From: Eledone cirrhosa
Lineage: Eukaryota
Assembly: GCA_964016885.1 (NCBI GenBank)
Contig: OZ024747.1
Coordinates: forward strand, 23,870,001 to 23,934,000
DNA length: 64,000 nucleotides
Reading direction: 5' to 3'
The notes under the pieces were generated by a model. It was not told the DNA's origin. It worked only from the letters and a program-made list of their open reading frames with translations, and searched no databases. The position numbers were made by a program, and so were the translations under genes. Numbering within the stretch: the first letter of the stretch is position 1; each line of letters starts with the position of its first letter. Shown here piece by piece: positions 34,132 through 62,825 of this stretch.

Positions 34132-37100
34132 CAGTATCAAGTTGATAGACCAGGTCATGAAAATTGCTGTTTGGTTTTTATGCCAGGTAGGGGTACATCT
34201 GATGTCCTCTTTCTGACGAGACAACTGCAGAAGTACTTAGCTATGAGTAACCCACTGTACTTCGCATTTGAGGATCTAGAGAAAGCCTCCAACAAGGTCC
34301 CACAGGCATGGGACATACACACAAACTTTCACACACACACACACATATATATATGAAGAGGTGAGTAAAATATTATTACAAGAAATTCTTCAGTGAACTT
34401 ACTCTAATTTGTTCTCCAAATTTATTTCTGACACCATCTAAACATTTTTTCAGCTCTTCAACTGTGATGTCCTACAATATTGATACAAGATATGACTTTA
34501 GTATTGTTGTCATAATGTTGGCATAGATATTTCTATTGATATCATATTGGTATAAGTAATGTCATAGTCATAGTTAATGTCATAGTGTTATAATTAGTGT
34601 CATAGTGACAATGTTATAGCTAGTGTCATAGTGACATAATGTTATAGCTAGTGTCATAGTGACATAGGTAATGTCAGTGTTATAGCTGGTGTGATAGTGA
34701 TATAAGTAATGTCATAGCGTTATAGATAATGTCAGTGTTATAGCTAGTGGCATAGTGTTATAGATAATGTCATAGTGTTATAGGTAAAGTCATAGTGTTA
34801 TAGCTAGTGACGTAGTTAATATTATAGTAGCATACATAATTAATGTCACAGTGATATAGTTAATGTCACAATAATATAGTTAGTGTCATAGTATTACAAG
34901 TAATATGAGAAGAAATAAAATGAAGTCAGTAAAGGTAATATCATAACAGAAGTATTTGATAGCAGTACAGGAAATAATAGAACAATTATCATGTTAGTCC
35001 AGGTAATAAAGACAGAAAGATAATCAATAAACAAATTAAGAAATACTTTAGATTTATTGTTTTCATCAAGTTCTTGCCATCTGGACTTCCAGTTCTCAGC
35101 CACAACTTCTCTTTGTTGTAAACATTTCTTTAATTCTACAAATGTACGGAAACCACAAATAAAACATAGTTTACAGGTATAACAACAGTCTACATGTTAT
35201 ACATGGTATATCTACAGTTTACAGGTATAACAACAGTCTACATGTTATACATGGTATATCTACAGTTTACAGGTATAACAACAGTCTACATGTTATACAT
35301 GGTATATCTACAGTTTACAGGTATAACAACAGTCTACATGTTATACATGGTATATCTACAGTTTACAGGTATAACAACAGTCTACATGTTATACATGGTA
35401 TATCTACAGTTTACAGGTATAACAGTCTACATGTTATACATGGTATATCTACAGTTTACAGGTATAACAGTCTACATGTTATACATGGTATATCTACAGT
35501 TTACAGGTATAACAGTCTACATGTTATACATGGTATATCTACAGTTTACAGGTATAACAACAGTCTACATGTTATACATGGTATATCTACAGTTTACAGG
35601 CATAACTCACAGTCACCTGCCAATTGCAATCTTTGCTGTGCTATGATGTGAGTTAACTTTGGTAGACAATTATTAAGTTCTAAATATTGATGATGTCGTA
35701 ATATATGGAAGTACACTCCAGTTAGCTGACTTTTCGAACACCTATGTGATTGTCTAAGTGTATAATAAGACAGATTCAACTGACATAATGTCCTAGATCT
35801 AACATTGCTAGTTTAAAGACATAACAATGTTACACATGTAACATAACTATTGTTTACATACATGAATCATGTGATCCTCTTATTTTATTGTAACTTTAGT
35901 TTTCTACCATATCACTTGTGATGGTGGGTAGGTAGAGGTTACTGGGAAATGTTAGACAGGAGTTAGTGAAGAAGGCTAGGAGGGGTCAGTTAAGACAAAT
36001 CTACTTTGTCTACCTTGTGTTTCCTCTTCCAATGTATTCACATAATGCTGTCTCTTCTCTTTCTCATTACATTGGTAATAAACACCGTCCAGCTTCTCCT
36101 GGTACCGTTGTTGGAGTTCTCCCATCAGTAATAACTCCTTCTGTAGCAAGAACATCTGTTAAATAGACACATCTGTAGTTAAGAACAACTGTTAAAAAGA
36201 CACACAGACAAACACTAGATTAGTAGGAATATCTCTTTAAAAAATACAGATACCACAGTAATAATCTCTGTAGCAAGAACATCTGGTAAATAGACATCTG
36301 TAGCAAGAACATCTGGTAAATAGACATCTGTAGTAAGAACAGCTGTTAAAAAGACACACAGACAAACACTACATTAGTAGGAACATCTGTTAAAAAGATA
36401 GACAGATACCACAGTAATAATCTCTGTAGCAAGAACATTTGGTAAATAGACACATCTGTAGTAAGAACAACTGTTAAAAAGACACACAGACAAACACTAC
36501 GTTAGTGGAACATCTGTTAAAAAGCTGGCTGTGGACAAGTGTACCACCATGCATTTTGGAAGGAAAAATCCAGCGTCCACATACTCCCTCCACAACACTG
36601 ATATCAAAAAGTCCTCTTGTGAATGTGACCTGGGCATTACTGTCAGCAACGATTTGCGTTGGACAAAGCATGTCTCTAAGATTGTCAAGAAGGCCGAGGG
36701 TGTCTTGGCATCACTCAGCAAGACCTTTGTTAGCCGCTCTCCAGCCATCTATTTAAAACTGTATACAGCTATGGTACGACCACACTTGGAATTCGCATCA
36801 TCAGTCTGGAACCCTTATCTTGCTCAGAACATTGACCTCCTGGAAACTGTTCAGAGACGTGCAACCAAGCGCATACCCTCCATCAGACACCTACCATACT
36901 CTGAACGCCTTACTTCCCTGGGCATGGATTCATTGAAGCTCTGACGTCTGCCAATGGACTTGGTGAATACCCACAAAGTTTTTAACCATCTCGCCAATTG
37001 CAACCCTGAGCGCCTCTTTGATCTGCATGTGTCTAACACACGTGGACATGCCTACAAGATCAGAAAACAGCACAGCTCCCATGACTTTCGTAGACATTTT

Positions 37101-40100
37101 TTCATGCTCAGAGTTGCTGAAGCATGGAACAAACTGCCTGCGTCAGTTGTTAGCTGCCGAGACACTGCATCCTTTAAGACACTCATGCTTCCCGAAATAC
37201 GCCAAAACTACACCTGATGTACCCCTTCCATACACATGCACACATGTGTGTATCATGACTCGTGCACTGTTCATTTTACTGATGTTTGTGCATTGCCCTA
37301 TGTACTGTACATGCACTTTTTTGATGAGTTGTGGTGCACCTGGGCACTGTACACAATATTTCATTATTGTTATTATTATTATATCATGACTCATACACTG
37401 TTCATTTTCCTGACATTTGTACATTATTCTATGTACTATACATGCACCTTTGATGAGTTGTAGTGCACCTGAGCACTGTACACAATAATTTCATTATTAT
37501 AGACAGATACCACAGTAATAATCTCTGTAGCAAGAACATCTGGTAAATAGACACATCTATAGTAAGAACAACTGTTAAAAAGACACACAGACAAACACTA
37601 CATTAGTGGAACATCTGTTAAAAAGATAGACAGATACCACAGTAATAATCTCTGTAGCAAGAACATCTGGTAAATAGACACATCTGTAGTAAGAACAACT
37701 GTTAAAAAGACACACAGACAAACACTACATTAGTAGGAACATCTGTTAAAAAGATAGACAGATACCACAGTAATAATCTCTGTAGCAAGAACATCTGGTA
37801 AATAGACACATCTGTAGTAAGAACAACTGTTAGAAAGACACACAGACAAACACTACATTAGTAGGAACATCTGTTAAAAAGATAGACAGATACCACAGTA
37901 ATAATCTCTGTAGCAAGAACATCTGGTAAATAGACACATCTGTAATAAGAACAACTGTTAAAAAGACACACAGACAAACACTACATTAGTAGGAACATCT
38001 GTTAAAAAGATAGACAGATACCACAGTAATAATCTCTGTAGCAAGAACATCTGGTAAATAGACACATCTGTAGTAAGAACAACTGTTAAAAAGACACACA
38101 GACAAACACTACATTAGTGGAACATCTGTTAAAAAGATAGACAGATACCACAGTAATAATCTCTGTAGCAAGAACATCTGGTAAATAGACACATCTGTAG
38201 TAAGAACAACTGTTAAAAAGACACACAGACAAACACTACATTAGTGGAACATCTGTTAAAAAGATAGACAGATACCACAGTAATAATCTCTGTAGCAAGA
38301 ACATCTGGTAAATAGACACATCTGTAGTAAGAACAACTGTTAAAAAGACACACAGACAAACACTACATTAGTAGGAACATCTGTTAAAAAGATAGACAGA
38401 TACCACAGTAATAATCTCTGTAGCAAGAACATCTGGTAAATAGACACATCTGTAGTAAGAACAACTGTTAGAAAGACACACAGACAAACACTACATTAGT
38501 AGGAACATCTGTTAAAAAGATAGACAGATACCACAGTAATAATCTCTGTAGCAAGAACATCTGGTAAATAGACACATCTGTAGTAAGAACAACTGTTAGA
38601 AAGACACACAGACAAACACTACATTAGTAGGAACATCTGTTAAAAAGATAGACAGATACCACAGTAATAATCTCTGTAGCAAGAACATCTGGTAAATAGA
38701 CACATCTGTAGTAAGAACAACTGTTAAAAAGACACACAGACAAACACTACATTAGTGGAACATCTGTTAAAAAGATAGACAGATACCACAGTAATAATCT
38801 CTGTAGCAAGAACATCTGGTAAATAGACACATCTGTAGTAAGAACAACTGTTAAAAAGACACACAGACAAACACTACATTAGTAGGAACATCTGTTAAAA
38901 AGATAGACAGATACCACAGTAATAATCTCTGTAGCAAGAACATCTGGTAAATAGACACATCTGTAGTAAGAACAACTGTTAAAAAGACACACAGACAAAC
39001 ACTACATTAGTAGGAACATCTGTTAAAAAGATAGACAGATACCACAGTAATAATCTCTGTAGCAAGAACATCTGGTAAATAGACACATCTGTAGTAAGAA
39101 CAACTGTTAGAAAGACACACAGACAAACACTACATTAGTGGAACATCTGTTAAAAAGATAGACAGATACCACAGTAATAATCTCTGTAGCAAGAACATCT
39201 GGTAAATAGACACATCTGTAGTAAGAACAACTGTTAGAAAGACACACAGACAAACACTACATTAGTGGAACATCTGTTAAAAAGATAGACAGATACCACA
39301 GTAATAATCTCTGTAGCAAGAACATCTGGTAAATAGACACATCTGTAGTAAGAACAACTGTTAAAAAGACACACAGACAAACACTACATTAGTAGGAACA
39401 TCTGTTAAAAAGATAGACAGATACCACAGTAATAATCTCTGTAGCAAGAACATCTGGTAAATAGACACATCTGTAGTAGAAGTAGTAATAGTATCTGTTA
39501 AACAGACAATATATAATGGTGATGGAGGTGGTGATGACGCCAAGGAGGAAGGTAATAATGTTGATGCTGATCATGTCAATGATGGAGGTGATGTTGTGCC
39601 AGTAACTTACCTGTTCCTTTAATTTTTCTTTATCAGAAACTTGTTTTTTCATCAGTTCCAACCTCTTCTCAGCTTGGAACAGTTTCTGGTTGGCTTCTTG
39701 AAAATTCTAGATATAAATATAATGAAAAAAAAACAACAAAACATATATATTATACCACTCTTCAATATGTATATACATATACACATACATACATATATGT
39801 ATATATCATATAACTATATATACATAAACATTACACCATACTACAATATACATATAAACTCTACACCATACTACAAAATATGTATATTTGTATGTACATA
39901 TATATATATACATACATACATACATACATACACACACACACAAACATATACATCAGGCCATACATCAAGTTGACAATACCAACACAATCCCAGATTATAC
40001 AAGTCATGAAGAAATATTTTTATGATAAATATTCTCAAAGAAAAATAAACCAATAAACCAACACCAACAACTTACATTTCGATCTTCTTTGGCCATCTTC

Positions 40101-43100
40101 TCTCTTTCACTGAGATCATTCTTCAAAAGTTCATTCTCAGCCTTCAGTTTCTCACAAAATGCCTGAGATACTCTGAGATTAATAATAACATGGTTTTACC
40201 AAATATTAGCATTAAGGTATTATTATATATATATACACATACATACATACATATATAAATCATCATCATCATCATCTTCGTTTAACATCCATCTTCCACG
40301 CTAGCATGGGTTAGACGGGAGTTGTCCCACTTGAGGCAATGTAGGTCAGGTGACCGTGTCTCGCTCATATAGGACTATCTGGCAGGTTTTCTACGACTGG
40401 ATGCCCTTCCTAACACCAACCACATTTACAGTGTGGAACTGGGAGGTTTTTACCGTGTTACCTACACGGCCACATTACAGCATGGACTGTGTGTGTTTTT
40501 TTTGTCGTGACACCTACACGATCTCGATCTCATTTTCTTGTGCTGTTGGTGGGAGTGGGAGGATAGGGTAGAGGATTTGGGTGTATATTTGGTTAAGAGG
40601 TGCCTACTGACTGTAGGTTTCGCTTTGTACATAGGCAAGGCGGGTCTTCTGTATTACTGCGTAGCGCCAAAGATCTCGGCTCAGTGACATTGTCTTAGAG
40701 AGATGTAAGTGTGTGAGGTCGGAATTTATCAGATCATCCCAGGTTTTTCTGGGTCTACCTACTCCGTAACTACCATCAATTTTGATCGCCCTGCACTTTT
40801 TTATGCAGCTGTCGTCTTTCATGCGCATCACGTGACCATACCAACGTAGTCTTCTCTCAAGTAACCAGCATCTGATCCCTCTTATTCCTAATTTCTCACT
40901 TAGTTCATTTATGCTTTGCCGTTCACGTATATTACTATTACACATCCAACGGAATATATATATACACATGGTGGCTGCCAACTCGTTTTCGAGTACGGCC
41001 ACTACTTTATATCCATGTAGGAGAACCCCCACCAATGCGCTGAATGAGTGTGACTTTTTAGTCCAGCCAGCGACCTGAAAACTCTGGTACAAACACTACA
41101 CCTGTGACAACTATTGACACATAGTGCTGGGCCCATGGTACCACGTGACGACAAGTGCAGAGAGATCTCCAGATATAAAGCAATGCCTGTGCCGTGAAGC
41201 TTTTATAGTGAGCAAAGGCACTGCACAAAGCCAGTCCCACTCTCTTAACCAAGATGATATTTACCAAAAAGAAGAACAAGTCAACATCATTGGATACCAT
41301 CAGGGTTGCAGGTGCTATATCAGAGTTTTCCTTCTCCTAGAATTCTGCCTTGACAAAGGCTAAGGGGTCATCTCTCTCGGTGATTTTGGATGGCTATTGA
41401 CTCTCAAGAGCTCCTTTTCCCTTTGACAGGTTTTGTTTTTAGTCCTGCAGGATGTCCAAAGTCACCCTCCTCACCAAGAAACCTTGGTGGGGTTGCCAGT
41501 TTAGTCGCCAACGACCCGACCATGAGACAGGTTGTACTGGGATACATGTTACCATATATACACATACATACATATATACATATAAAAATATATATATTGC
41601 AATTTCGTATTTATAAATAAACATTTAGAAAGCCGTTGCTATGCAAAAACACTGGCAGCTATCGCCACCTCGCAGTGTCCAGCAGAAGCAAGGGGGACAA
41701 TCATTGATGCATTTCGAACTGATATGGTTCTCATCAGGATGATCCCTCCTGCTCTTGCAACTGCTGAGAATATATAGTTTTCTCGTCTGTGTAAATGAGG
41801 TGATTAATCTTATTTGTATATGAAGCTGTATAAGTTGACTAAACTTATAATTATAAGTAAGAGCAGCCGGTTATGGCCAGTTTGAACAGAAAGAGGTGAG
41901 AGAATTCTGGCTGGATACAGCCGATTTAAATGCTAAAGAGTTAATTAACTGTAGTAATTAAAAACCAATCAATTAACAAAATATACTTACTTTAGTTTCT
42001 CAATAGATGAATACTGATTTTTATCTTCAGTCTGTTTTAATTGGCAATTAATTTCCTGCAGTTTCTTGATTGTTTCTTGTAAATCACGGATCTCTTTTTC
42101 TTGAAGACGCAATTGATCCAACTGGAACAACAAGAGGAAGCAGGAGATGCATTAGCCTTTTTTGATACCAAGCTGTCTGAAATTGTCCCCTAGTTCTAGG
42201 ATACACACACATCACAGCCCACACTACAATATTGCTCACATATCTAGGACCGTGTTACTGTTTCAAACAGACATCCTAGACTAAAGTGTAGTACTGTTCA
42301 CATATCTGAAACAGTGTTATTGTTACACACAGACATAGTAAACTACACTGCAGTACTGTTCACATATCTGAAACAGTGTTATTGTTACACACAGACATAG
42401 TAAACTACACTGCAGTACTGTTCACATATCTGAAACAGTGTTATTGTTACACACAGACATAGTAAACTACACTGCAGTACTGTTCACATATCTGAAACAG
42501 TGTTATTGTTACACACAGACATAGTAAACTACACTGCAGTACTGTTCACATATCTAGGACAGTGTTATTCTTACACACAGGCATCCTAGACTACACTGCA
42601 GTGTAACTTGGGGTTAAATATCATCACTATAAACAACAAGAACAAAGGGAAATAAGAAAGAAAAGATAAAAAGCTCCCTTACTATAGCTGAATTTTGTTC
42701 CTTCAAAGCTGTCACATGAGAAGCATTGATTTGTTTCGTTGCAGCCAGTTTAGCAAATCCTTCACGTTGCAGACGTTCATAGATTAGTTGGTTCTGCATA
42801 AGGATTATTTGGTTCTGAAGAATACTTAGGTCGTCAGCAGGTGGGGAGCCTGGCAGAGGAGATATAAAGAAATACATAACATGGGGCATTATTTTATAGT
42901 ATGGGCAGAGGATTGGCAGTATCGGTAGAGGGTCGGACGCCATGTTTTTCAGCATAGAGTTACAGCCCTTTATGATCTGAGTTCAAATCCTGCCAAGGTT
43001 AACTTTGCTTTTCATCCTTACGGGGTCGATAAAATAAAGTACTAGTTATATACTGGGTAATTGCTGGCCTTGTGCCAAAAGTAGAAACAATTATTTTATA

Positions 43101-46100: not shown

Positions 46101-49100
46101 TCGCGCCTTTTTTCACTTCTAAAGGGTTCCAGATTAATTTTCGTAGAGACAAGACATTACTAAATCTGTTCCCTGGAACAACTGGCAAGATGTAGAACTT
46201 ACCAAAAAACTTTGGCCCTGTCGGCAAGGGCCCAACTAGTTCAACTTAATCATATGGCATGTCACCAGCTTTTTACTCTTTCAGTACATGTAATAATTTA
46301 CGGAGAAAAATAAACCTTTTATATAATTTCCTCACTGTGCTTTCCTGTCTGATCCTTCCATATGGACTACCAACAACTATAACATGCAGTCTTATAACCT
46401 AATCTTCTTTAAGGATTCTTCTCACAACCAAAAATAATATTTCAAAGACTTTTCTGCTAAACATGGTCCTCAGACATATTTAAGAGGGCAGTAACTCTGA
46501 TGACAACCCATCTAACCCATGCCAGCATGAAAAGAGAATATGATGATGATGATGATGATAATGATAATGGGTGGTGGTAGAAGTGGTTGTGTTGATAGTG
46601 GTAGTAAATATTTAAAAGTAAATAACATGGCAGTAACAGAAATATGATGTACACTTACCTCCATATCACAAGAAGCCATTTTCGAACAAGAATGGTGATC
46701 TAGAGTAAGAAATATAGATAATAGATTATCATCATCGCTTAATGTCCATCTTCCACGCTAGCATGGGTTAGACGGGTTTGTCCCACTTGAGGCAAGATTG
46801 GTCAGGTGACCGTGTCTCACTCGTTAATAATTAATAAAAATCATTAATTAAACATAGCTACACCGTACAGTATATGATGGAATATATATTTACATTGGCT
46901 GGAAATTAACTTTGAGGTTTACCTCAAGTAGTGAGATTCCAGCTTTGCTGGGTTTTATCTACAGTAATGTAGTGTGATTCCAGCTTTGCTGGGTCTTATC
47001 TACAGTAATGTAGTGTGATTCCAGCTTTGCTGGGTCTTATCTACAGTAATGTAGTGTGATTCCAGCTTTGCTGGGTTTTATCTACAGTAATGTAGTGTGA
47101 TTCCAGCTTTGTTGGGTCTTACCTACAGTAATGTAATATGTTTCCAACCTTGCTAGGTCTTATCTAAAGAGAACAAGCCTAACACAAGTGTGGTTCTAGC
47201 CTTGTTGAGTTTTATGTAGAAAGAACAAACAATTATATATATATTTAAGAATTTCAAAATTACATCCAGTTAAGGAGTTAGAATTATTACTTTATTCCAG
47301 TTTCATGGATGGGTGTTAAGTGACTGAGAATAGAAAACTCGTTCAGTTGCACAGCTAGCTCACAGGTACTGTGAGCCCATCACTCCAAACACTAGGCCAC
47401 ACACCTTCACATACATTCCACTTAATAAATCTTGTTTTATTTGATATGCCTAAGAGGGACCTCTATAATTGCTAAATCACCCTTAATGCTTCTGTTATCA
47501 TATTTCTAATGATATACCCTGCCAGTGATTTTCAAATAATTTTGAAGATAATTGATAATTTGGAGGATTTAGAAATATAACTTTCTTATTTCGTTGGTAT
47601 TTGGAGCATAACTTAAGAAAGGTTCTTACATAAAATGATGGAAAGTTTTTGGATAAATATAAACATAATAAAACAAAAAGTTTTATAGTGTAGAACCATG
47701 GACAATTTCAGCTACTTTGATATGAACATAGTTAAACTCCTATTATAGTTAACTAAAACTAATAAGTATCTAGAAATTAGTTGGTAAGTATAGTGTTAAA
47801 GGTACATACTTGTGATCTGGGTATCTACTTCACATGAATTTAGAATTGGGGTGTTTCCTTTGCTGGGTGCTGCAGATGTTGCTTGGGACATGGGTGGGGT
47901 AGAGAGGTGGGCATCCAATGAAGGACTCCACCACAGCATGGCATCTGGGGTTAAAACATCTCCTTTTAATGGCTGACATAGGGCTGACAAGTTCAAATCT
48001 ACAAGAAATGAAAAAGAACAAACATTTAGATATTAAAATGTAGAAATAAAAACAACAAGCACTTTACAGTAATTTTCCCTGCTAAAACAGGGGTTAGCCA
48101 TACAAACTTCATAACAGGCATGGGGACATTTTTGTGTTAAAATTTTAGTCACCTTTTACAATAGACAGGAATACAGTGTATCAATTCTAAACTGTAGATA
48201 CTCAGAGATAAAGAATGGTAAACACAAATACTTACCAAGACTTCCTGAAGACAGAAATGAATCTCTGTAGGAACTGTTTCCAGTGACAATATTGTTTGGT
48301 TGCGCCGTAAAGTCTACCGAAGGACGTTGACTATTTTGTTTTTGATAAAAGAACAATGCTGGAATTTCTTCATCTTTATAGACGGTGCCTTCGATAGGAT
48401 CAAGGATGAGAGATGTACAGCTGGCTAGAATGTCATGGGTCTCTTTACTGTGCCAACTAAAAATGATAAGACAATAGGGTTAACCGTAACACCATACCAT
48501 GTATTAATTGAAAGAAGGTACCAGAATCTATTTTATCATCATTTTAAGTTCAATTTCCCTGCTGGCATGTGTTGGATGAGTTGTCATGGTCCAATTTGAG
48601 ACACATCAGAGAATGTTTTGTTCATGTGTTCCATATTTTGACATAGTTTCTATGGCCAGATGCTCTTCTTACTACCAACCACTTTACAGAATGTACTGTG
48701 GCACCAACACTAAAGAAGTTATGTACCTGGCAAGAGTGAAGAGTCCTCTGTAGTCTATATTATCTCTGTTTGCTCATCAAACACCTTGCAGAGTGTTACA
48801 CACACACACACACATCATTCTCATCATTTATATGCCCACTTTTCCATGCTGTCATGGATTGGACAGGATGTTTTGAGACTGATTTATAGCCTGATGGATT
48901 CAGTTTGAAACTGGTTAGACCATTGCTCAACAGAGTACTTAATACTTCGGGTAGTAGAGAATGGTTATATTATAAAGAGTCAGAACCCCGACAGTTGAGC
49001 TCTTACCATTTCAACAGCCAGTCTGGAACTGGCTGTTGAAACGGCAAGAGCTCAGCTGTCGGGGTTCCAACTCTTTATAATATATATATATTTCGACAGT

Positions 49101-52100
49101 AAGGAAGAGCATTTAGAGTCGTACAATATAGAGGAACAGTGGGAATTCCTGAAAGCAAACCTGCTGATGGCGGCAGACGAAGTCTGTGGCTGGAGCAGGC
49201 CTATAGGCAGGAGGAGAGTAACATGGTGGTGGAGGAGTCAATTAAGGCCAAAAATCAGGCTTGGAAAGTATGGCAGGAAGGGGGAAGTAGAGAAGACTAT
49301 CAAGTGGCCAGGAGGGAAGCTAGGAGACAAGTGTACTTCACAAGAAGGGAAGCAGAGGAAAGAAAGTTCAAGCATGTTCTACAACGCGAGGTGTTCAGGA
49401 TTGCTAGGCAATGTGTCAAGGAAAACCGTGATATTGTCGGGGAGAAGTGTGTACTTAATGATGATGGTGTACTTGCCATCACTGAGGCTGATAAGAAGGT
49501 AGCTTGGAAGTGTCACTACGAAAGGCTACTAAATGAGGAGAATAAATGGGAGAAAGACAGTCTCCCCCACATCGACCCAATAGAGGAACCAGCAGTGTTA
49601 GTCGAAGGTAGTATAATAAGTAAGGCAATCAAAAATATGAAGACGGGTAAGGCGGCTGGGCCTTCGGAAATAGTTGCTGAAATGCTGAAAGCTTCTGGAA
49701 CGGTGGGACACACCATGGTCACCCGGATAGTAAACCAAGTCATATAGAATGGGGTTCTTCCGAAGGACTGGCGTAGCAGCATCATCGTTAACTGCTACAA
49801 GGGTAAAGGAGATGCCCTAGATAGGAGTAACTATAGAGGCATTATATTAATCGACCAGGTCATGAAGGTCACAGAAAAAGTAATAGCGCAACTAATCAGA
49901 GAGAGAATTGATCTAGATGAAATGCAGTTCGGGTTTGTGTCAGGCAAAAGTACCACAGACGCTCTTTTCATTGTACGACAACTACAGAAGTACCTAGCTA
50001 AAAGTAAACCCCTACACTTAGCGTTTGTCGACTTGGAGAAAGCCTTCGACAGAGTCCCCCGTTCCATTATCTGGTGGGCTCTTAGAAAACTAGGTGTTGA
50101 TGAATGGCTTGTGAGAGCTATACAAGCCATGTATAAAGAAACAGTCAGCGAATATAGTGAAGAGTTTAGCGTAAAAGTTGGTGTTCATCAGGGCTCCGTT
50201 CTTAGCCCCCTACTATTTATTATTGCCCTTCAGGCTATAACAGTGGAGTTCAAGACTGGCTGCCCATGGGAACTCCTATACGCAGATGATCTAACGCTCA
50301 TAGCTGAATCAATGGCCGAACTAGAGAAGAAATTCCAAACATGGAAGCATGGCCTAGAATCAAAAGGCCTTAAAATTAACCTGTCTAAGACTAAAGTTCT
50401 AGTTTGTAGGAAGGAAAATAGGGCGCTGGTCCCATCCGGGAAATGGCCATGCTCAGTGTGTAGGAAAGGAGTAGGTAGAAACTCCATTTTATGTCCCAAA
50501 TGCAGAGTATGGGTGCATAAAAGATGTAGTGGGATCACAGGTAAGCTAACTAAGAACATAGATTTTATATGTAGCCGGTGCTCTGGTGCAATAAGTAGCA
50601 GCAAGTGCCCACAGAATACTAGCTCTTTCAATTGCACAGATGGTTCTATAGAAATAGTGGACAGCTTCCGTTACCTGGGTGACAAAATCAGCAGTGGGGG
50701 AGGGTGCTCTGAAAGTACAGTAGCTAGAGTCAGAACTGGATGGAAAAAGTTCAGAGAACTTATACCACTATTAGCCGCTAAAGGGTTCTCCCTAAAAATG
50801 AAAGGCAGGCTGTATGATGCCTGCATATAAACAGCAATGTTGCATGGCAGTGAGACCTGGGCATTGTGTGCAGAGGATATACACAGACTAGAGAGGAACG
50901 AAGCTTGCATGCTCCGCTGGATGTGTAACAGTAATATACGTGAACGGCAAAGCATAAACGAACTAAGGGAAAAATTAGAAATAAGAGGGATCAGATGTTT
51001 ACTCGAGAGAAGGCTACGTTGGTATGGTTACGTGATGCGCATGAAAGATGACAACTGTATAAAAAAGTGCAGGGCAATAAAAATAGACGGTAGCCACGGA
51101 GTAGGCAGACCCAGAAAAACCTGGGACGACTTGATAAATTTTGACCTCACACACTTACACCTCTCCAAGACAATGTCACTGGACCGAGATCTTTGGCGCT
51201 ACACAGTAATAGAGAAGACCCACCTTACCTAATACAAAGTAAAACCTACTACAGTCAGTAGGCACCTCTCTAACAAAATACACCCCCGTCCCACTACCCC
51301 CACCCCATCCACACCACCCCCTTTCGATGTTAAGTTATGTTGGTACCACAACATCTAGTCCGAAACAAATGAGGTCGTGTAGGTGTCACGACAAATAAAC
51401 AAACAGTCCACGCTGTAATGTGGCTGTGTAGGTAACACGGTAAAAACCTCCCAGTTCCACACTGTAAATGTGGTTGGTGTTAGGAAGGGCATCCAGCCGT
51501 AGAAAACCCGCCAGACAGTCCTATGTGAGCAAGACAACCACTCTTGCCTCAAGTGGGAAAACTCCCGTCCAAACCCATGCAAGCGTGGAAGATGGACGTT
51601 AAACGATGATGATGATGATGATATATATGTATGCCAGCACGGAAAACAGGTGTTAAATGATGATGATGGGCTTCCTTATGGTTTCTATCTACCAAATTCA
51701 CTCACAAGGCATCATTTGGCCCAGAGCTATAAAACAAAAAATAGTTTTGAAGCAAATAGTAAATAAATTATATTTGAATGCATTGCCAATGAAGACTATA
51801 ACAATAAAAACAACTTTTGTAAGAAAATGTAAGAGAATGATAAAAAAAACAAAACAAATCAAAATAAATCTTACCGGCTGGATACCGTTTCCATTTCTTT
51901 AGATTCTGTCACAAGAAGTGGATTAAAACGTACTCTCTCCAGCATTGGCTACAAGATATATTTTGTATAGAAGATATATATATTTATGCCAACAACCCTT
52001 ACTACATTTTTAATGAAAAACGGTTTGTTTGAATTAGGGTGATGAAGTAATATAACTAACTTACACCTTATTAAGTTGGCATTAGAGTACAAGTTAACAA

Positions 52101-55100
52101 AGGTTCTTACATAATATAACTGAATATTTTTTTTAGATAAATATAAACAATTTAAAGTAAACAGCTTAGTATCATTGGACTAAGGGTAGTTTCAGGTGGT
52201 TTGGTATCAAACGGTTTAATAAAGAATTTTGGAAGAATTTACTAAGATTGTTAATTATTTCATTATTAAGCTAGTATTTATAGCAAACAAAAAATTCTAT
52301 CAAATTTTTTAAAGAAGATTTAAATTTAAATAGGAACCTTTTAAAATGTGTGGTTTTGTTTTATCGAATCAGAGGTGGTTTTGGGTGGATTAGAAGGTGG
52401 GTGGGATATATTCGTAAATGTAACTGGAAACTTGTGTTTTACCTTCACTATTGCCTTGTAAATGTTTCGGTTCTCTTCTCGTCTTGCAAAGTTACGGAGA
52501 AAAATCAAGAAATTACAGGGGTACATTCCATACAGACGGTAGAAAAAAGCATACAGAGCAGCTTTCAGATGTATTACAAAAATCTTGGGAACATTTCCTA
52601 CAAGACAAAGAAAGAATTTCATTATGAAACTTAATGACTAAGTGGAAGTTGTGGTAGAGAAAGACCAAGGGAGATGTGGGTAGAAGTGATGAAAGTACAG
52701 CAGAAGAAAGAGACAAGTGAAGATGACTCATCTAACCTATGCAAGCATTGACAAACTGATGTAAAAATGATGATAATTAAGAAGCAAATGATGAGGGATT
52801 TAGCAAGAAATATTCTGTATTGTGAAATCTCCCTCAAATCACACCTCACTGCCTTTGTGTGTGTTTTATGTATGTAGTTATTAGTTAATAACGGAAATCT
52901 TTACATGATAGTCAGATTGAATAGAAATAGCAAACAAACCATCCTCAAACCACACCTTCTTGTCAAATATATGTATGTATGTGTGTGTGTGTGTATGAGC
53001 CAATGAAGGAGGCTGCTGCATGATAGTCTTAGAAATATCAACCAAATCTCCCCAACAAGGAAGACTGTTACATGGTAGTCAGAGATACTTTACATTACAA
53101 CATTGTGTATCCTAACCCCACTAAAGCCACAATCCAGCATTACAAGTATAAAAGTAGTCTGATGTTTAAGCTTAAAACTTTGGTAAAAATCTTACCTGGC
53201 TTTTCACAGGAGAACTCTGCAACTCTACCAAACATCTCAAAGAAGTCAGTAAGGTATGGCATTGTGTGTTTTGGTAAGACAGGCATGAGGGCTGAGAGAA
53301 TGGTTAAACCAGTCATCAAGACAGGGACGTCAGTGTCAGTCTAGAAGGAGAAACAATATACAAGGAAAACATTCTTAGAAAAAAAATTCAATCAATTAAA
53401 CTTGAATAAAAAAAAAATCAATATTTTAAAAAATACATAAATATCTTTTGTTATGTTTAACTCTTTCATTGCCATATTTCTGATGAAAGACGTTCCTTAT
53501 GATTTTGAAATAACTTAGACAATCAAGAATTTGGAGGGATTAGTAATATAACTAACTTTTTCATTAAGTTGGTGTTTGGAACATAACTTAAGAAAGGTTC
53601 TTAATATAAGCATTTTACAATATGTATATATGTATAAAAGTTTTGTTTCAGCAAAAGAATCTTGGATGGTATCTGGTTTACTTGATTACTACCTCACTAC
53701 ACATTCAGATGAGGCTCTCAAAATGTTGTCTGCCATTAACAAGCAACATGAAAAGGTCAGTGCTAGGTTTTTCTTTTGCTGTTGATCTATTACAGGGGAC
53801 CATAAAACGAAGAGCAGTTTCAACAGTCTGCTCTCTTGCACACCACTTTGGATTCTTCTTAAACCCAGTTTCTCCCTCAGTTTATCCAAGCTCTGCTTTT
53901 CTCTCACATTTATATTGCACATCCAAACAAAGCATGGTTGTTTGATTTCTCTCCACCCTATGCATGTCCTCTGTAGTCACTGCCCATGTTTTACCATGCA
54001 GCATCGCACTTCACACACAGGCATCATACAGTCGTCCTTTTGTATATTGGGAGAAACCTTTTGCTGCCAACAGTGGGAGTAGCTCTCTTAACTTCTTCCA
54101 TCCTATCTTTATTCTAGCTATTAAGCTCCCAAAAGCACCCTCCTCCACAGCTAATTAGGTCACCTAAAGGCAATATATTGTTTACAAAAATATGATAATG
54201 AAAAGGTTAGCAAGTGTGTGACCAATGTGAAAAGTATGGAAAACTGTGACTTAGAATAAGTATAAAAAAGGGTAAAACAAACCTTAACACATTTGATGAT
54301 GTCATAGAAGAGATGTGCATTTCCAATCTGGTAGAGCCATTGTGGTTCCTCGCCAACAGCGTACAGTACGATTCGAAGAATTGGCAAGCGGTGGTCTGCA
54401 AACTTCATACTCTCATGTAGCTTGTCTAGTAATACCTAGTCAGATAATAAATTGTCTAAAATGTAGTAAGGGTTGCAATGAAGTTATAATTTTAGCCAAC
54501 CATACAACAGTATATATTTACTTATTTTTTATACACGTCTGGTGTTGATGTGGGAGTCAAGTATCCCATGAAGGGGTTGATGGTCTAAAAAGTTTATGGT
54601 CCCCTGTAATAGATCACCAGCAAAAGAAAAACCTAGCACTGACCTTTTCATGTTGCTTGTTAATGGCAGACAACATTTTGAGAGCCTCATCTGAATGTGT
54701 AGTGAGGTAGTAATCAAGTAAACCAGATACCATCCAAGATTCTTTTGCTGAAACAAAACATTTATACATACATACATAAGTTAAGTAAATAGATGCAGGC
54801 ATGGTTAACCCTTTAGCATTTACATTACATTATATATACTGCTATATTTTCACAGTAAAGGCTTTATCTTATATATTTATCTGACATAATATCGAATCAA
54901 TGAGATTTTGATATTATTTATTTTAAGAACAATACCTTAACATCAGTATAGGCGGCTGGCTAGAGCCGGTTTGTACAGAAAGAGGTGAGAGAACTCTGGC
55001 CAGATACAGCCAGTTTAAATGCTAAAGGATTAAGGAGTTCACTTTTCAACTATATGGTTCCAGTTTCTGTCATACTGTGTGACACCTTCAGCAAATGTCT

Positions 55101-56267
55101 TTTACCATAGACTCAGACAGACCAATGCTTTGTGAGTGAAATTTTGTAGACAGAAACTGTCAGGAAGCCCACTATGCATATGTGTGAGTGCAAGTGTATG
55201 AGTGTGTTTATGTTCACTGTTTACCATATATCTTGTAACTTAGCAGTTTGACAAGAAAGAGATTGATAAATAAGTGCCAGACTTAAAAAAAAAGTACTGA
55301 TGTTATTATGATCAACTAAATCCCCTCAAGGTGCAATTCCAGCAGTGACACAGTCTAATGACTGAAACAAGTAAAAGAGTATGTGTGAATGCATGTATAT
55401 AGTGCTGGTAGCATGATAAATTGCACCCAGTACACCCTGTAAAATGGTTAGTGTTCAGGAGGTCATCCAGCCATAGAAGCCATGCCAAACAAAGGATTGA
55501 GAGGATTCTTTGTGTGAAGGACATGACAAATTCTCACTGGCGTCCACAATAACATATCCCTATCCACCGGAGAAACCAAGCCAAAACCAGAACATAGGTA
55601 AGCAAGATGTGGGTTCCTAGCCTATGGTGAGAGGATAGTAACTCCAATTAAGTACTGAGTTGATCCATATGTATCATCATCATTTTATGTCCGCTTTTCC
55701 CTGCTTGCAAGGGTCGGACGGGAACTGATTCTGGCTTGATTTCTACAGCTGGATGCCCTTCCTAACACCAACCTCATTTACAGTGAGTGCTGGGTGCTTT
55801 GCAGTGGAATGATAGGGACCCCAGTCCCTATCATCTCATTTCTACAGCTGAGTAAACTGGAGCAATGTGAAATAAAGTGTCTTGCTCAAGGAAACAACAC
55901 ATCACCTGGTCTGAGAATTGAACTCACAACCTTTCGATTGCAAACCCAATGCTCTAACCACTAAGCCATGTGCCTCCATTTATAAATATGGAACGCTTCA
56001 CGAATTTGCGTGTCATCCTTATATGTATATATATATACACACATACAAACATACACACAGACGTATGAGAGAGAGAGAAAGAGAGAGAGTGGCAAATGAC
56101 TTACTCGTACGCAGGTTTTCTTGTATAAGTTGTCGAGTCTGACTGACCACAGCCAGGTCATTATTGTCCAAGAGATTAAACAACTGTTTCACATTGACCT
56201 CATGTACAATTGAAGAACTGTTGCTGGCAATGCTACTCTGACAGTCTGTAGCCATTCTGTCCGGCAT
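31823..56267 (-). CDS. TSC1: Hamartin / TSC complex subunit 1; 21 coding exons, about 1052 aa
   Basis: Hallmarks LLDYYL, IHLKAALYAFFYRLYGMYPCNFLIFL, PMLERVRFNPLLVT, WWSPS...TPP, LMQNQLIYERLQRE and a C-terminal coiled coil. Exons total 3159 nt in one frame. Confidence 0.96.
32390..33480 (+). mobile_element. Highly degenerate RTE-like LINE fragment
   Basis: Frameshifted remnants FVIFIDSTKAFNSV, GVKQGCVLIP, WVGHV, RIPKIVLYSEL. Confidence 0.7.
33671..33785 (-). CDS. TSC1: TSC1 coding exon 20
   Basis: VSEAKFDSVMKVNQNLQSHILKLRGEI... Confidence 0.87.
34403..34471 (-). CDS. TSC1: TSC1 coding exon 19
   Basis: DITVEELKKCLDGVRNKFGEQIR; GTAAGT donor. Confidence 0.85.
34558..34895. repeat. Degenerate short-period repeat (GTCATAGTGTTATAGCTAGT-like)
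   Basis: Recurring GTCATAGT and GTTATAG words. Confidence 0.8.
35047..35135 (-). CDS. TSC1: TSC1 coding exon 18
   Basis: ELKKCLQQREVVAENWKSRWQELDENNKSK. Confidence 0.85.
35168..35601. repeat. 48/45-bp minisatellite, about 9 copies
   Basis: Unit TTTACAGGTATAACAACAGTCTACATGTTATACATGGTATATCTACAG. Confidence 0.97.
36014..36155 (-). CDS. TSC1: TSC1 coding exon 17
   Basis: MFLLQKELLLMGELQQRYQEKL...; conserved LLxxGE block. Confidence 0.9.
36140..39478. repeat. 127/128-bp tandem array (about 3 plus 15.5 copies) split by a LINE
   Basis: Unit start AGACAGATACC recurs at 37501, 37628, 37756 and onward. Confidence 0.97.
36525..37498 (+). mobile_element. 5'-truncated CR1/L2-group LINE inserted in a satellite
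   Basis: DLGITV...LYTAMVRPHLEFASSVWNPY...LETVQRRATK; duplicated 3' UTR segment; (ATT)n tail; no TSD. Confidence 0.9.
39611..39706 (-). CDS. TSC1: TSC1 coding exon 16
   Basis: NFQEANQKLFQAEKRLELMKKQVSDKEKLKEQ. Confidence 0.9.
40076..40172 (-). CDS. TSC1: TSC1 coding exon 15
   Basis: VSQAFCEKLKAENELLKNDLSEREKMAKEDRN. Confidence 0.88.
40261..41553 (-). mobile_element. RTE derivative: 3' ORF end and UTR (40261-40933) joined to a probable RTE 5' region (about 40950-41553)
   Basis: RWMCNSNIRE...GRPRKTW plus (GAT)n tail. Assignment of the upstream part is inferred. Confidence 0.75.
41699..41744 (-). ncRNA. Minimal type I hammerhead-ribozyme-like motif
   Basis: GATCATC CTGATGA GAAC-loop-GTTC GAA ATGCAT C AATGATT. 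Confidence 0.55.
41991..42121 (-). CDS. TSC1: TSC1 coding exon 14
   Basis: LDQLRLQEKEIRDLQETIKKLQE...; coiled coil. Confidence 0.92.
42237..42603. repeat. 62-bp minisatellite, about 6 copies
   Basis: CACATATCTGAAACAGTG recurs at 42299, 42361, 42423, 42485. Confidence 0.95.
42683..42849 (-). CDS. TSC1: TSC1 coding exon 13
   Basis: SPPADDLSILQNQIILMQNQLIYERLQRE...LKEQNSAI. Confidence 0.95.
42915..43092 (+). mobile_element. Short SINE-like family (copies also at about 592-810, 14588-14762, 31430-31545, 56810-57000)
   Basis: B-box GAGTTCAAATCC, core AACTTTGCCTTTCATCCTTACGGGGTCGATAAAATAAAGTAC, tail GCCTTGTGCCAAAAGTAGAAACAAT. Confidence 0.8.
43369..43515 (-). CDS. TSC1: TSC1 coding exon 12
   Basis: LSPVEILDKLLSRGAAQHDKELSQLP...FGG. 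Confidence 0.94.
44287..44853 (-). CDS. TSC1: TSC1 coding exon 11
   Basis: 567-nt open exon (ORF 44255-44842) bounded by CAG and GTAAGT. Confidence 0.9.
45377..45509 (-). CDS. TSC1: TSC1 coding exon 10
   Basis: RPLQATKVTPVSCSSSPVEERKAPE...; open frame, phase-consistent. Confidence 0.8.
46659..46699 (-). CDS. TSC1: TSC1 coding exon 9 (41 nt)
   Basis: HHSCSKMASCDME; TAG/GTAAGT; needed to restore phase. Confidence 0.75.
46929..47165. repeat. 41-bp minisatellite, about 5.5 copies
   Basis: Unit GTAGTGTGATTCCAGCTTTGCTGGGTCTTATCTACAGTAAT. Confidence 0.93.
47810..47998 (-). CDS. TSC1: TSC1 coding exon 8
   Basis: ...LWWSPSLDAHLSTPPMS... Confidence 0.9.
48236..48456 (-). CDS. TSC1: TSC1 coding exon 7
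   Basis: WHSKETHDILASCTSLILDPIE...; GTAAGT donor. Confidence 0.92.
48966..49084. repeat. 57-bp-arm hairpin with 5-nt loop
   Basis: 48966-49022 is the reverse complement of 49028-49084 with 5 mismatches. Confidence 0.93.
49094..51622 (+). mobile_element. 5'-truncated RTE-clade LINE with stops
   Basis: RT motifs QFGF, FVDLEKAFD, GVHQGSVLSP, YADD; GRPRKTW C-terminus; (GAT)n tail. Confidence 0.95.
51875..51948 (-). CDS. TSC1: TSC1 coding exon 6
   Basis: PMLERVRFNPLLVTESKEMETVSS. Confidence 0.94.
52443..52597 (-). CDS. TSC1: TSC1 coding exon 5
   Basis: NVPKIFVIHLKAALYAFFYRLYGMYPCNFLIFLR. Confidence 0.96.
53196..53340 (-). CDS. TSC1: TSC1 coding exon 4
   Basis: TDTDVPVLMTGLTILSALMPVLP...DFFEMFGR. 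Confidence 0.94.
53621..53806 (+). repeat. Inverted duplicate of TSC1 exon 2 plus flanking intron (partner at 54593-54778)
   Basis: About 186 bp reverse-complement match with 3 mismatches, all intronic. Confidence 0.95.
53807..54160 (-). mobile_element. RTE ORF fragment abutting the inverted exon copy
   Basis: GWKKLRELLPLLAAKGFS...LYDACV...MCNINVREKQS. Confidence 0.85.
54283..54435 (-). CDS. TSC1: TSC1 coding exon 3
   Basis: VLLDKLHESMK...PQWLYQI...IIKCVK. Confidence 0.93.
54644..54747 (-). CDS. TSC1: TSC1 coding exon 2
   Basis: KESWMVSGLLDYYLTTHSDEALKMLSAINKQHEK. Confidence 0.93.
54795..55381 (+). mobile_element. Second SINE family with a CR1-like tail, interrupted by a MITE
   Basis: Degenerate tRNA-like head; ends TGACTGAAACAAGTAAAAGAGTA, like the LINE tail at 63301-63365. 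Confidence 0.7.
54809..55029 (-). mobile_element. piggyBac-type MITE nested in the head of a SINE
   Basis: TTAA TSDs at 54805-54808 and 55030-55033; TIRs present. Confidence 0.88.
55674..55978 (-). mobile_element. tRNA-derived SINE with RTE-type tail, abutting the U6 fragment
   Basis: Same family, small internal deletion. Confidence 0.88.
55984..56020 (-). pseudogene. U6 snRNA 3' fragment (37 nt)
   Basis: Reverse complement AAGGATGACACGCAAATTCGTGAAGCGTTCCATATTT matches the conserved U6 3' end. Confidence 0.92.
56105..56267 (-). CDS. TSC1: TSC1 coding exon 1
   Basis: MPDRMATD...VKQLFNLLDNNDL...IQENLRT; GTAAGT donor; acceptor at 56306-56307. Confidence 0.88.
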
Positions 56268-56492
56268 TCTAGCTCACTTGATACACTCGATAGCAGCAAA
56301 GACGCCTGAAAACACATACAAATAATAATAATAATAATCATACAATAACAACAAGAATTTTAAAGTAATTTCCCATGCTAAGGCAAGGTTTAGCCATGCA
56401 GGCCCCATAACAAGCTTCTTCATTTTGCCCTATCAATTACATCCCCCTTCAACCAACTCCCTGGCTCTCATTTCCTCCCCCATCATCTTTAA

Positions 56493-60451: not shown

Positions 60452-62825
60452 GAGGTGTTCAGGATTGCCAGGCAATGTGTCAAGGAAAACCGTGATATTG
60501 TCGGGGAGAAGTGTGTACTTAACGATGATGGCATACTTGCCATCACCGACGCTGATAAGAAGGTAGCTTGGAAGTGTCACTACGAAAGGCTTCTAAATGA
60601 GGAGAACAAATGGGAGAAAGACAGTCTCCCCCAGATCGATCCAATAGAGGGACCAGCAGTGTTAGTTGAAGGTAGTATAATAAGTAAGGCAATCAAAGAT
60701 ATGAAGACGGGTAAGGCGGCTGGGCCTTCGGAAATAGTTGCTGAGATGCTGAAGGCATCTGGTTCGGTGGGACACACCATGGTCACCCGGATAGTTAACC
60801 AAGTCGTACAGAATGGGGTTGTTCCGAAGGAATGGCGTAGCAGCATCATCGTTAACTGCTATAAGGGAAAAGGAGATGCCCTAGATAGGAGTAACTATAG
60901 AGGCATTAAATTAATCGACCAGGTCATGAAGGTCACGGAAAAAGTAATAGCGCAACTAATCAGAGAGAGAATTGATCTAGATGAAATGCAGTTCGGGTTT
61001 GTGTCAGGCAAAAGTACCACAGACGCTCTTTTCATTGTACGACAACTACAGGAGAAGTACCTAGCTAAAAGTAAACCCCTATACTTAGCTTTCGTCGACT
61101 TGGAGAAAGCCTTCGACAGAGTCCCCCGTTCCATTATCTGGTGGTCTCTTAGAAAACTAGGTGTTGACGAATGGCTTGTGAGAGCTATACAAGCCATGTA
61201 TAAAGAAACAGTCAGTAAGGTTAGAATTAACAACGAATATAGTGAAGAGTTTAGCGTAAAAGTTGGTGTCCATCAGGGCTCTGTTCTTAGCCCCCTACTA
61301 TTTATTATTGCCCTTCAGGCTATAACAGAGGAGTTCAAGACCGGCTGCCCATGGGAACTCCTATACGCAGATGATCTAACGCTCATAGCTGAATCAATGA
61401 CCGAACTAGAGAAGAAATTCCAAACGTGGAAGCACGGCCTAGAATCAAAAGGCCTTAAAATTAACCTGGCTAAGACTAAAGTTCTAGTTTGTAGGAAAGA
61501 AAATAAGGCGGCGGTCCCATCGGGGAAATGGCCATGCTCAGTGTGTAGGAAAGGCGTAGGTAGAAACTCCATTTTATGTCCCAAATGCAAAGTATGGGTG
61601 CATAAAAGATGTAGTGGGATCACAGGTAAGCTAACTAAGAACATAGATTTTACATGTGGCCGGTGCTCTGGTGCAATAAGTAGCAGCAAGTGCCCACAAA
61701 ATACTAGCTCCTTCAACTGCGCAGAGGGTTCTATAGAAATAGTGGACAGCTTCCGTTATCTGGGTGACAAAATCAGCAGTGGGGGAGGGTGCTCTGAAAG
61801 TACAGTAGCTAGAGTCAGAACTGGATGGAAAAAGTTCAGAGAGCTTATACCACTATTAGCCGCTAGAGGGTTCTCCCTAAAAATGAAAGGCAGGTTATAC
61901 GATGCCTGCATACGAACATCAATGCTGCATGGCAGTGAGACCTGGGCATTGTGTGCAGAGGATATACGCAGACTAGAGAGGAACGAAGCTTGCATGCTCC
62001 GCTGGATGTGTAACAGTAATATACGTGAACGGCAAAGCATAAACGAACTAAGGAAAAAATTAGAAATAAGAGGGATCAGATGTTGTTTACTCGAGAGAAG
62101 GCTACGTTGGTACGGTCACGTGATGCGCATGAAAGACGACAGCTGTATAACAAAGTGCAGGGCAATAAAGATAGACGGTAGCCACGGAGTAGGCAGACCC
62201 AGAAAAACATGGGACGAGCTGATAAATTCCGACCTCACACGCTTACACCTCTCCAAGACAATGTCACTGGACCGAGACCTTTGGCGGTACTCAGTAATAG
62301 AGAAGACCCGCCTTACCTAAATACAAAGTAAAAACCTACTACAGTCAGTAGGCATCTCTATCAAAACACACCCCCGTCCCACCACCCTCCACCCCACCCA
62401 CACCGCCCCTTTCAATGTAAAGTTATGTTGGTCCCACAACATCCAGGCCGAAACAAATGAGATCGTGTAGGTGTCACGACAAAAAACACACAGTCCACGC
62501 TGTAAATGTGGCCGTGTAGGCAACACGGTAAAAACCTCCCAGCCCCACACTGTAAATGTGGTTGGTGTTAGGAAGGGCATCCAGCTGTAGAAAACCCGCC
62601 AGACAGTCCACGCTGTAATGTGGCCGTGTAGGCAACATGGTAAAAACCTCCCAGCCCCACACTGTAAATGTGGTTGGTGTTAGGAAGGGCATCCAACTGT
62701 AGAAAACCCGCCAGACAGTCCTATGCGAGCAAGACAACCACTCTTGCCTCAAGTGGGAAAACCCCCGTCCAAACCCATGCAAGCGTGGAACACGGACGCT
62801 AAACCTGATGATGATGATGATGATG

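Follow-up and report, generated by a model that had tools for sequence, protein, structure and literature searches.

The window analysed here, a stretch of 64,000 nucleotides from Eledone cirrhosa, carries a complete TSC1/hamartin gene on the minus strand at 31826-56267. Three of the four exon translations tested matched Pfam PF04388, and in a tblastn search with the hamartin of Octopus bimaculoides residues 1-1051 aligned near-continuously from 56267 to 31826, in 21 exon-like blocks when the inverted copy described below is not counted. The first coding exon (56105-56305, minus strand) has its ATG at 56267 and an acceptor of its own at 56305. Coding exon 2 (54644-54747, minus strand) comprises 104 nt with the boundaries TTTCAG/CAA...AAG/GTCAGT and is present in a spliced contig; it is followed by coding exon 3 (54283-54435, minus strand, 153 nt), which aligns to human residues from 71 on, and by coding exon 4 (53196-53340, minus strand, 145 nt). 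Exon 3 is 96% identical to the hamartin of Octopus bimaculoides and 90% to that of Argonauta; the human counterpart of this octopus-lineage exon is TSC1 exon 5 (153 nt, from c.211). At the 5' end of the spliced contig (X5) there are about 230 additional nucleotides. This excess and the acceptor at 56305 indicate that a non-coding exon probably precedes the first coding exon. Thus what an earlier sequence-only reading had called exon 2 is indeed an exon, yet it is the second coding exon, since its supposed exon 1 begins at an acceptor.

TSC1 introns contain minisatellites at 37499-39478, 35168-35614, 42221-42602 and 46928-47166. An intronic minisatellite unit of 128 nt is present in 15.5 copies with a match of 99%, which points to a recent expansion. 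Apart from the pair at exon 2 there is a second intragenic inverted pair (40246-40953 versus 50913-51633; 745 nt, 82% identity, about 10 kb apart) consisting of LINE ends. Two LINE copies of the window, 49388-51521 in a TSC1 intron and 60452-62609, are 94% identical, and both have a reverse-transcriptase ORF with a PHD-finger match. Elsewhere in the window a second multi-exon gene lies at about 1300-23400 on the minus strand, where one exon among four segments tested matched U3snoRNP10 (PF12397); judged by sequence, the gene is probably HEATR1/UTP10. A transposase fragment at 2066-2584 on the plus strand matched PF13843 (DDE_Tnp_1_7).

In the intron after exon 3, positions 53621-53806 (plus strand, antisense to the TSC1 transcript; arm A) are the reverse complement of 54593-54778 (minus strand; arm B, the source segment) over 186 nt without gaps and with 183/186 matches (BLAST E 4e-88). 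In arm B the second coding exon, complete with acceptor and donor, is preceded by 31 nt and followed by 51 nt of intron sequence. In arm A the equivalent of exon 2 is located at 53652-53755 on the plus strand, with intron flanks that measure 31 nt on the acceptor side and 51 nt on the donor side. The sequence CTTAAC at 54785-54780, which we take to resemble a branch point, lies just beyond the duplicated arm. The three mismatch pairs (53628/54771, 53639/54760 and 53782/54617) are all intronic, with 0/104 in the exon. An exon-biased conservation of the copy was rejected because this placement is non-significant (chance P = 0.084). A spacer of 786 nt with exon 3 inside separates the arms. The BLAST and ungapped alignments thus upheld the sequence-only reading, which had described a reverse-complement copy of exon 2 with both splice sites, three mismatches outside the exon and arms about 790 nt apart around exon 3. 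The 186-nt arm occurs exactly twice in the 3.0-Gb genome. As the arm is a host exon with two genomic copies, a transposon terminal inverted repeat or foldback element was ruled out. With an exon and its flanking intron present in reverse complement within the same gene, the locus is an intragenic inverted exon duplication. Among the articles listed in a literature search, none dealt with the inverted copy at this locus.

Both repeats flanking the inverted copy end at the insertion, and a filler of 17 nt is found at each junction. On the left, an AT-rich dispersed repeat (53451-53603, plus strand), which appears to be MITE-like, ends abruptly at 53603, where copies of the family continue CATAAAAT...; beyond this position hundreds of contigs of the repeat family run on differently from the window. 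On the right, an internal LINE fragment (53824-54166, minus strand) is about 85-87% identical to genomic copies, and in 7/8 copies compared the family extends some 210-270 nt past 53824. The left filler (53604-53620) has no clear template. The right filler (53807-53823) contains AGAGCAG as an inverted match to the LINE end at 53828-53834, a faint hint of a snap-back, as a 7-nt inverted match was equalled by 3.2% of 4685 random 17-mers. Best matches of the fillers within 52600-55800 were 8-9 nt long and not convincing as templates. With only the filled allele in view, no microhomology was apparent at the junctions. On the simplest reading a single repair or replication event would have put in the inverted copy at the cost of a few hundred bases; the flanking repeats could also have been truncated before the copy arose.

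The comparison drew on contigs, and contigs only, from four of eight listed runs (X1, X2, X4 and X5); X1 and X2 are conspecific and X5 represents spliced RNA. The other four were X3 and the RAD runs X6-X8; within 53000-56400 no site for SbfI, PstI or EcoRI was found. A relative with about 90% identity (organism B) has one contig over 53884-54757, which aligns to the LINE fragment at 53884-54166 and runs unbroken through exon 2. Within 54593-54757 it differs from the source arm by at least 10 substitutions (8 intronic, 2 exonic) and 3 indels among the differences listed. Because the copy carries the E. cirrhosa letter at nine of the ten listed substitution sites, it is young or homogenised: by its sequence it was apparently made from an allele of the E. 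cirrhosa lineage after the split from organism B, or was homogenised since. Copy and source diverge at 3/82 intronic bases, compared with 8 substitutions in 51 bases between organism B and the source. At the tenth site, 54617, the copy has the letter common to organism B and to X1 and X2, which are each unbroken through the source arm and differ from it solely at this position. The assembled source arm has C there, and the conspecific contigs, organism B and the inverted copy all imply A; the C/A difference is a polymorphism, a new mutation or a consensus error. X1 and X2 may come from the assembly's own sample, and hence be non-independent.

Contig depth of X1, X2 and X4 was zero in the bins covering 53645-53810, and exact contigs were also absent from the listing for the neighbouring repeat zone at 53570-54134. 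The cleaning of assembly graphs can drop short branches beside high-copy repeats. For both reasons we did not count the zero depth as evidence. Likewise, depth over the source arm as compared with its neighbours (X1, 11.3 versus 11.2/9.75; X2, 6.94 versus 5.77/5.88; X4, 18.5 versus 17.5/15.2) is uninformative on copy number.

The background scan for inverted pairs covered 790 kb in 79 pieces of 10 kb, 40 of them beside the window and 39 scattered, with a threshold of at least 100 nt, at least 95% identity and a distance within 5 kb. Seven pairs passed, about one per 110 kb, and all were multi-copy. Six were dispersed repeats, some of which end in long inverted arms, and one was a tRNA-Met pair. 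Two further pairs of about 90% identity were multi-copy as well. Local inverted duplications of single-copy DNA had been expected to be frequent in the genome; this idea was rejected, because 0/7 comparable pairs were of single-copy origin. Long near-perfect inverted repeats are common here, one derived from a single-copy exon is not. This speaks against the TSC1 copy as a routine feature, but does not imply function. Young high-copy elements with inverted arms of 280-440 nt and 96-99% identity were seen in three background stretches (L025:1340-2403, L034:1-1171 and L060:9063-10000), and by their sequence these elements may be a plentiful source of long double-stranded RNA. Another stretch (L089:344-3010) has four clustered tRNA-Met genes, one of them inverted, and many relatives of this cluster are situated on contig C4 near 357.9-358.1 Mb.

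The minimum free energy (MFE) structure of the RNA pairs 184/186 arm bases, and the duplex alone has -328 kcal/mol. This predicted stability is a consequence of the complementary arms and says nothing of folding in cells. The mismatches translate into one G-U, one U-U and one G-A opposition without a compensatory change; with none among the three and one relative compared, we found no indication of an old, conserved pairing. The intron does hold a sequence able to pair with the exon, as an editing-complementary sequence (ECS) has to be. Exon 2 contains 35 adenosines, and 25 of these would recode if read as G. Skipping of exon 2 leads to a stop at codon 62 and skipping of exons 2 and 3 to a stop at codon 56. 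Skipping of exon 3 alone keeps the frame open at the expense of 51 amino acids of the TSC1 N-terminal domain. Translation therefore agreed with the sequence-only reading, in which the first two products were frameshifted and the third was in frame. Every skip product looks like a loss of function. The in-frame product is unlikely to be a useful isoform because an in-frame loss of 23 amino acids in human TSC1 exon 5 was classed as pathogenic (PMC11978479).

In X5, a spliced contig of 3111 nt and depth 132, exons 5-4, 4-3 and 3-2 are joined at canonical intron ends; the stretch compared excluded exon 1, hence joints of exon 1 to exon 3 or 4 were outside the view. One joint on opposite strands is exon 2 of the mRNA placed on the copy, since the exon 2 sequence fits both arms. 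Among 40 of 128 rows listed for this one contig set there was no difference in exon 2. The dominant TSC1 message of the sample thus includes exon 2, which is weak evidence as to the duplex: rare isoforms and partial editing do not show in contigs, messages lacking the exon would be broken down, and the animal may or may not carry the copy. No signal of selection on the inverted copy was found. The sequence-only reading had proposed that a duplex of about 186 bp buries exon 2 and that it serves as an editing guide or as a splicing switch. The duplex is stable by MFE, but the functions found no support. An evolved editing guide finds no support in a copy that postdates the split from organism B, shows neither compensation nor exon bias, and is accompanied by no listed exon-2 difference in X5. 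A splicing switch finds none in the normal joints of X5, in skip products that look like loss of function or in the lack of a selection signal.

Known intronic ECS of ADAR targets of the GluA2 Q/R type are conserved, pair imperfectly and belong to particular edited sites. Like these, the TSC1 copy is an intronic sequence complementary to a coding exon of the same pre-mRNA, and it occurs in a lineage that edits heavily. Unlike these, it is young and near-perfect, with no edited site seen in X5. Among 22 species, octopus was found to edit at the highest rate, and intramolecular folding is enriched where editing occurs (bioRxiv 2020.01.19.911685).

Closer parallels exist in human disease. In choroideremia, a 1,752-bp inverted copy of CHM exon 12 lies downstream of the normal exon; its authors propose an origin by FoSTeS/MMBIR, predict a hairpin with a stem of about 1.65 kb and a loop of 274 nt, and observed out-of-frame skipping (PMC8756506). 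The TSC1 copy is like the CHM allele in that an exon with flanking intron is inverted downstream, in the proposed template switch, in the predicted exon-burying hairpin and in the frameshift that a skip would cause. It is unlike it in length (186 versus 1,752 bp), in loop size (786 versus 274 nt) and in location past another exon instead of in the next intron. Moreover, the CHM account includes clear microhomologies and observed skipping, whereas neither was seen for TSC1, where the one spliced contig is normal. In MANBA, a 13.1-kb inverted duplication of exons 8-11 with a 67-base gap left a homozygote devoid of normal transcript (PMC6549551). Here, too, the copy is intragenic and inverted, some DNA was lost where it inserted, as is proposed for TSC1, and the skipping of several exons was attributed to a hairpin; unlike the TSC1 copy, the duplication is 13.1 kb long, Alu-mediated and pathogenic. 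Short-range template-switch mutations, i.e. local copying in replication, are widespread in great-ape genomes (PMC7954356). Those are small mutation clusters, whereas for the TSC1 copy a template about 1 kb distant would have supplied 186 nt, fillers are present and flanking sequence is apparently missing. As in exon skipping by loop-out between inverted Alus (bioRxiv 10.1101/2025.03.07.642063), the TSC1 arms have an exon between them, exon 3, which might be looped out, but one of them is a coding exon with splice sites and not a transposon. Artificial inverted repeats affected splicing in vivo only with more than 50 nt of perfect pairing, and where the loop is long, splicing factors may bind before the repeats pair (PMC2275289, citing Solnick and Lee 1987 and Eperon 1988).

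Taken together we consider it probable that the copy is a young template-switch duplication and a tolerated by-product, not an evolved editing or splicing device, with at most minor skipping or promiscuous editing. The truncated flanking repeats and the 17-nt fillers at both junctions lead us to infer template switching. A break or stall in TSC1 intron 3 would have made synthesis jump to the other strand at a distance of about 1 kb and copy 186 nt, and rejoining would have lost the adjoining repeat ends and added the short fillers. The pre-mRNA of carriers is then predicted to be capable of folding into the duplex. Because exon 2 would be transcribed some 790-970 nt before its antisense partner, splicing commitment would probably come first in most transcripts, a kinetic advantage that we infer as well. 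The minority of transcripts that fold would either lose exon 2, with or without exon 3, and run into an early stop, or undergo unselective editing. We favor the by-product because of the mere two copies, their youth, the truncated flanks, the likeness to CHM and MANBA, the normal X5 and the lack of compensation. On the other hand, a single-copy inverted duplication is not routine (0/7 background pairs in 790 kb) and no microhomology was apparent with only the filled allele in view. That the copy is tolerated may be wrong, because its 186 bp far exceed the threshold of roughly 50 bp in vivo that is cited in PMC2275289, and because normal transcript was absent from the MANBA homozygote (PMC6549551). 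The X5 animal may or may not be a carrier, minor isoforms escape contigs and nonsense-mediated decay would hide them further. X1 and X2 are possibly from the assembly's own sample.

It is possible, though rather unlikely, that the allele is a hypomorph of the CHM/MANBA type, in which an efficient hairpin causes most transcripts to skip exon 2 or exons 2 and 3 and to perish, and which persists as a rare heterozygous allele. The human CHM and MANBA alleles do show exon skipping (PMC8756506, PMC6549551), the stem of 186 bp at -328 kcal/mol covers both splice sites, and a conspecific chromosome has another letter at 54617. The latter implies that the TSC1 locus varies within the species or the individual. 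However, the human stems exceed it by far in length (CHM, about 1.65 kb with a loop of 274 nt; MANBA, a 13-kb duplication), X5 was spliced normally, albeit in an animal that may lack the copy, and the three accumulated differences suggest some persistence.

There is a slim chance that an editing guide or poison-splicing switch has been caught at birth: ADAR and the spliceosome would act on the recent perfect antisense partner in a tissue- or temperature-dependent manner and thus dial TSC1/mTOR.

An assembly or haplotype artefact, with copy and exon 2 not on one molecule, is improbable. No contig in the four runs spans both arms. A fold-back chimera, however, would be adjacent and identical, and here the arms differ at three sites, the two 17-nt fillers are novel, both neighbours are truncated repeats, the copy keeps the letter at 54617 common to the relative, and the window is free of N.

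We give still less credence to a co-opted ECS or to a regulated switch to unproductive splicing by which TSC1 and, through it, mTOR output would be tuned. The arm neatly spans the exon and both splice sites with 0/104 exonic mismatches, single-copy inverted duplications were rare in the background sample, and octopus leads 22 species in editing with folds enriched at editing sites. Yet the copy is young, with no diverged shared form in the one relative, and its exon bias is non-significant (P = 0.084). Perfect duplexes are edited promiscuously, and in the near-perfect one here each of the 35 adenosines of the exon, 25 with a recoding effect, would be open to editing. The spliced contig X5 showed no majority change. 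Finally, that the arms yield hairpin siRNAs against exon 2, a circular RNA of exon 3 or a recombination inverting the exon-3 segment is very unlikely: arms that flank exon 3 and match the mature mRNA have a fitting geometry, and hairpin RNAs and repeat-driven circles are known, but a nuclear intronic hairpin has poor Dicer access, and among 15 of 285 joints listed there was no back-splice or inversion joint, the single one on opposite strands being exon 2.

The architecture is already known from the human disease alleles of CHM and MANBA, and the TSC1 copy is a real-looking young mutation of the same class. It gives a naturally arisen example from outside humans, within a conserved gene of growth control, of a mutation class seen in rare human disease. 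If carriers and non-carriers exist, the locus would test how an exon-burying duplex of 186 bp with a loop of 786 nt fares against co-transcriptional splicing, and whether a heavy editor recodes an exon once a perfect complement appears. Should carriers be unaffected, the copy would be ordinary debris. If the device was indeed caught at birth, copy-bearing and copy-free chromosomes in one species would be a natural experiment on the origin of cephalopod recoding structures.
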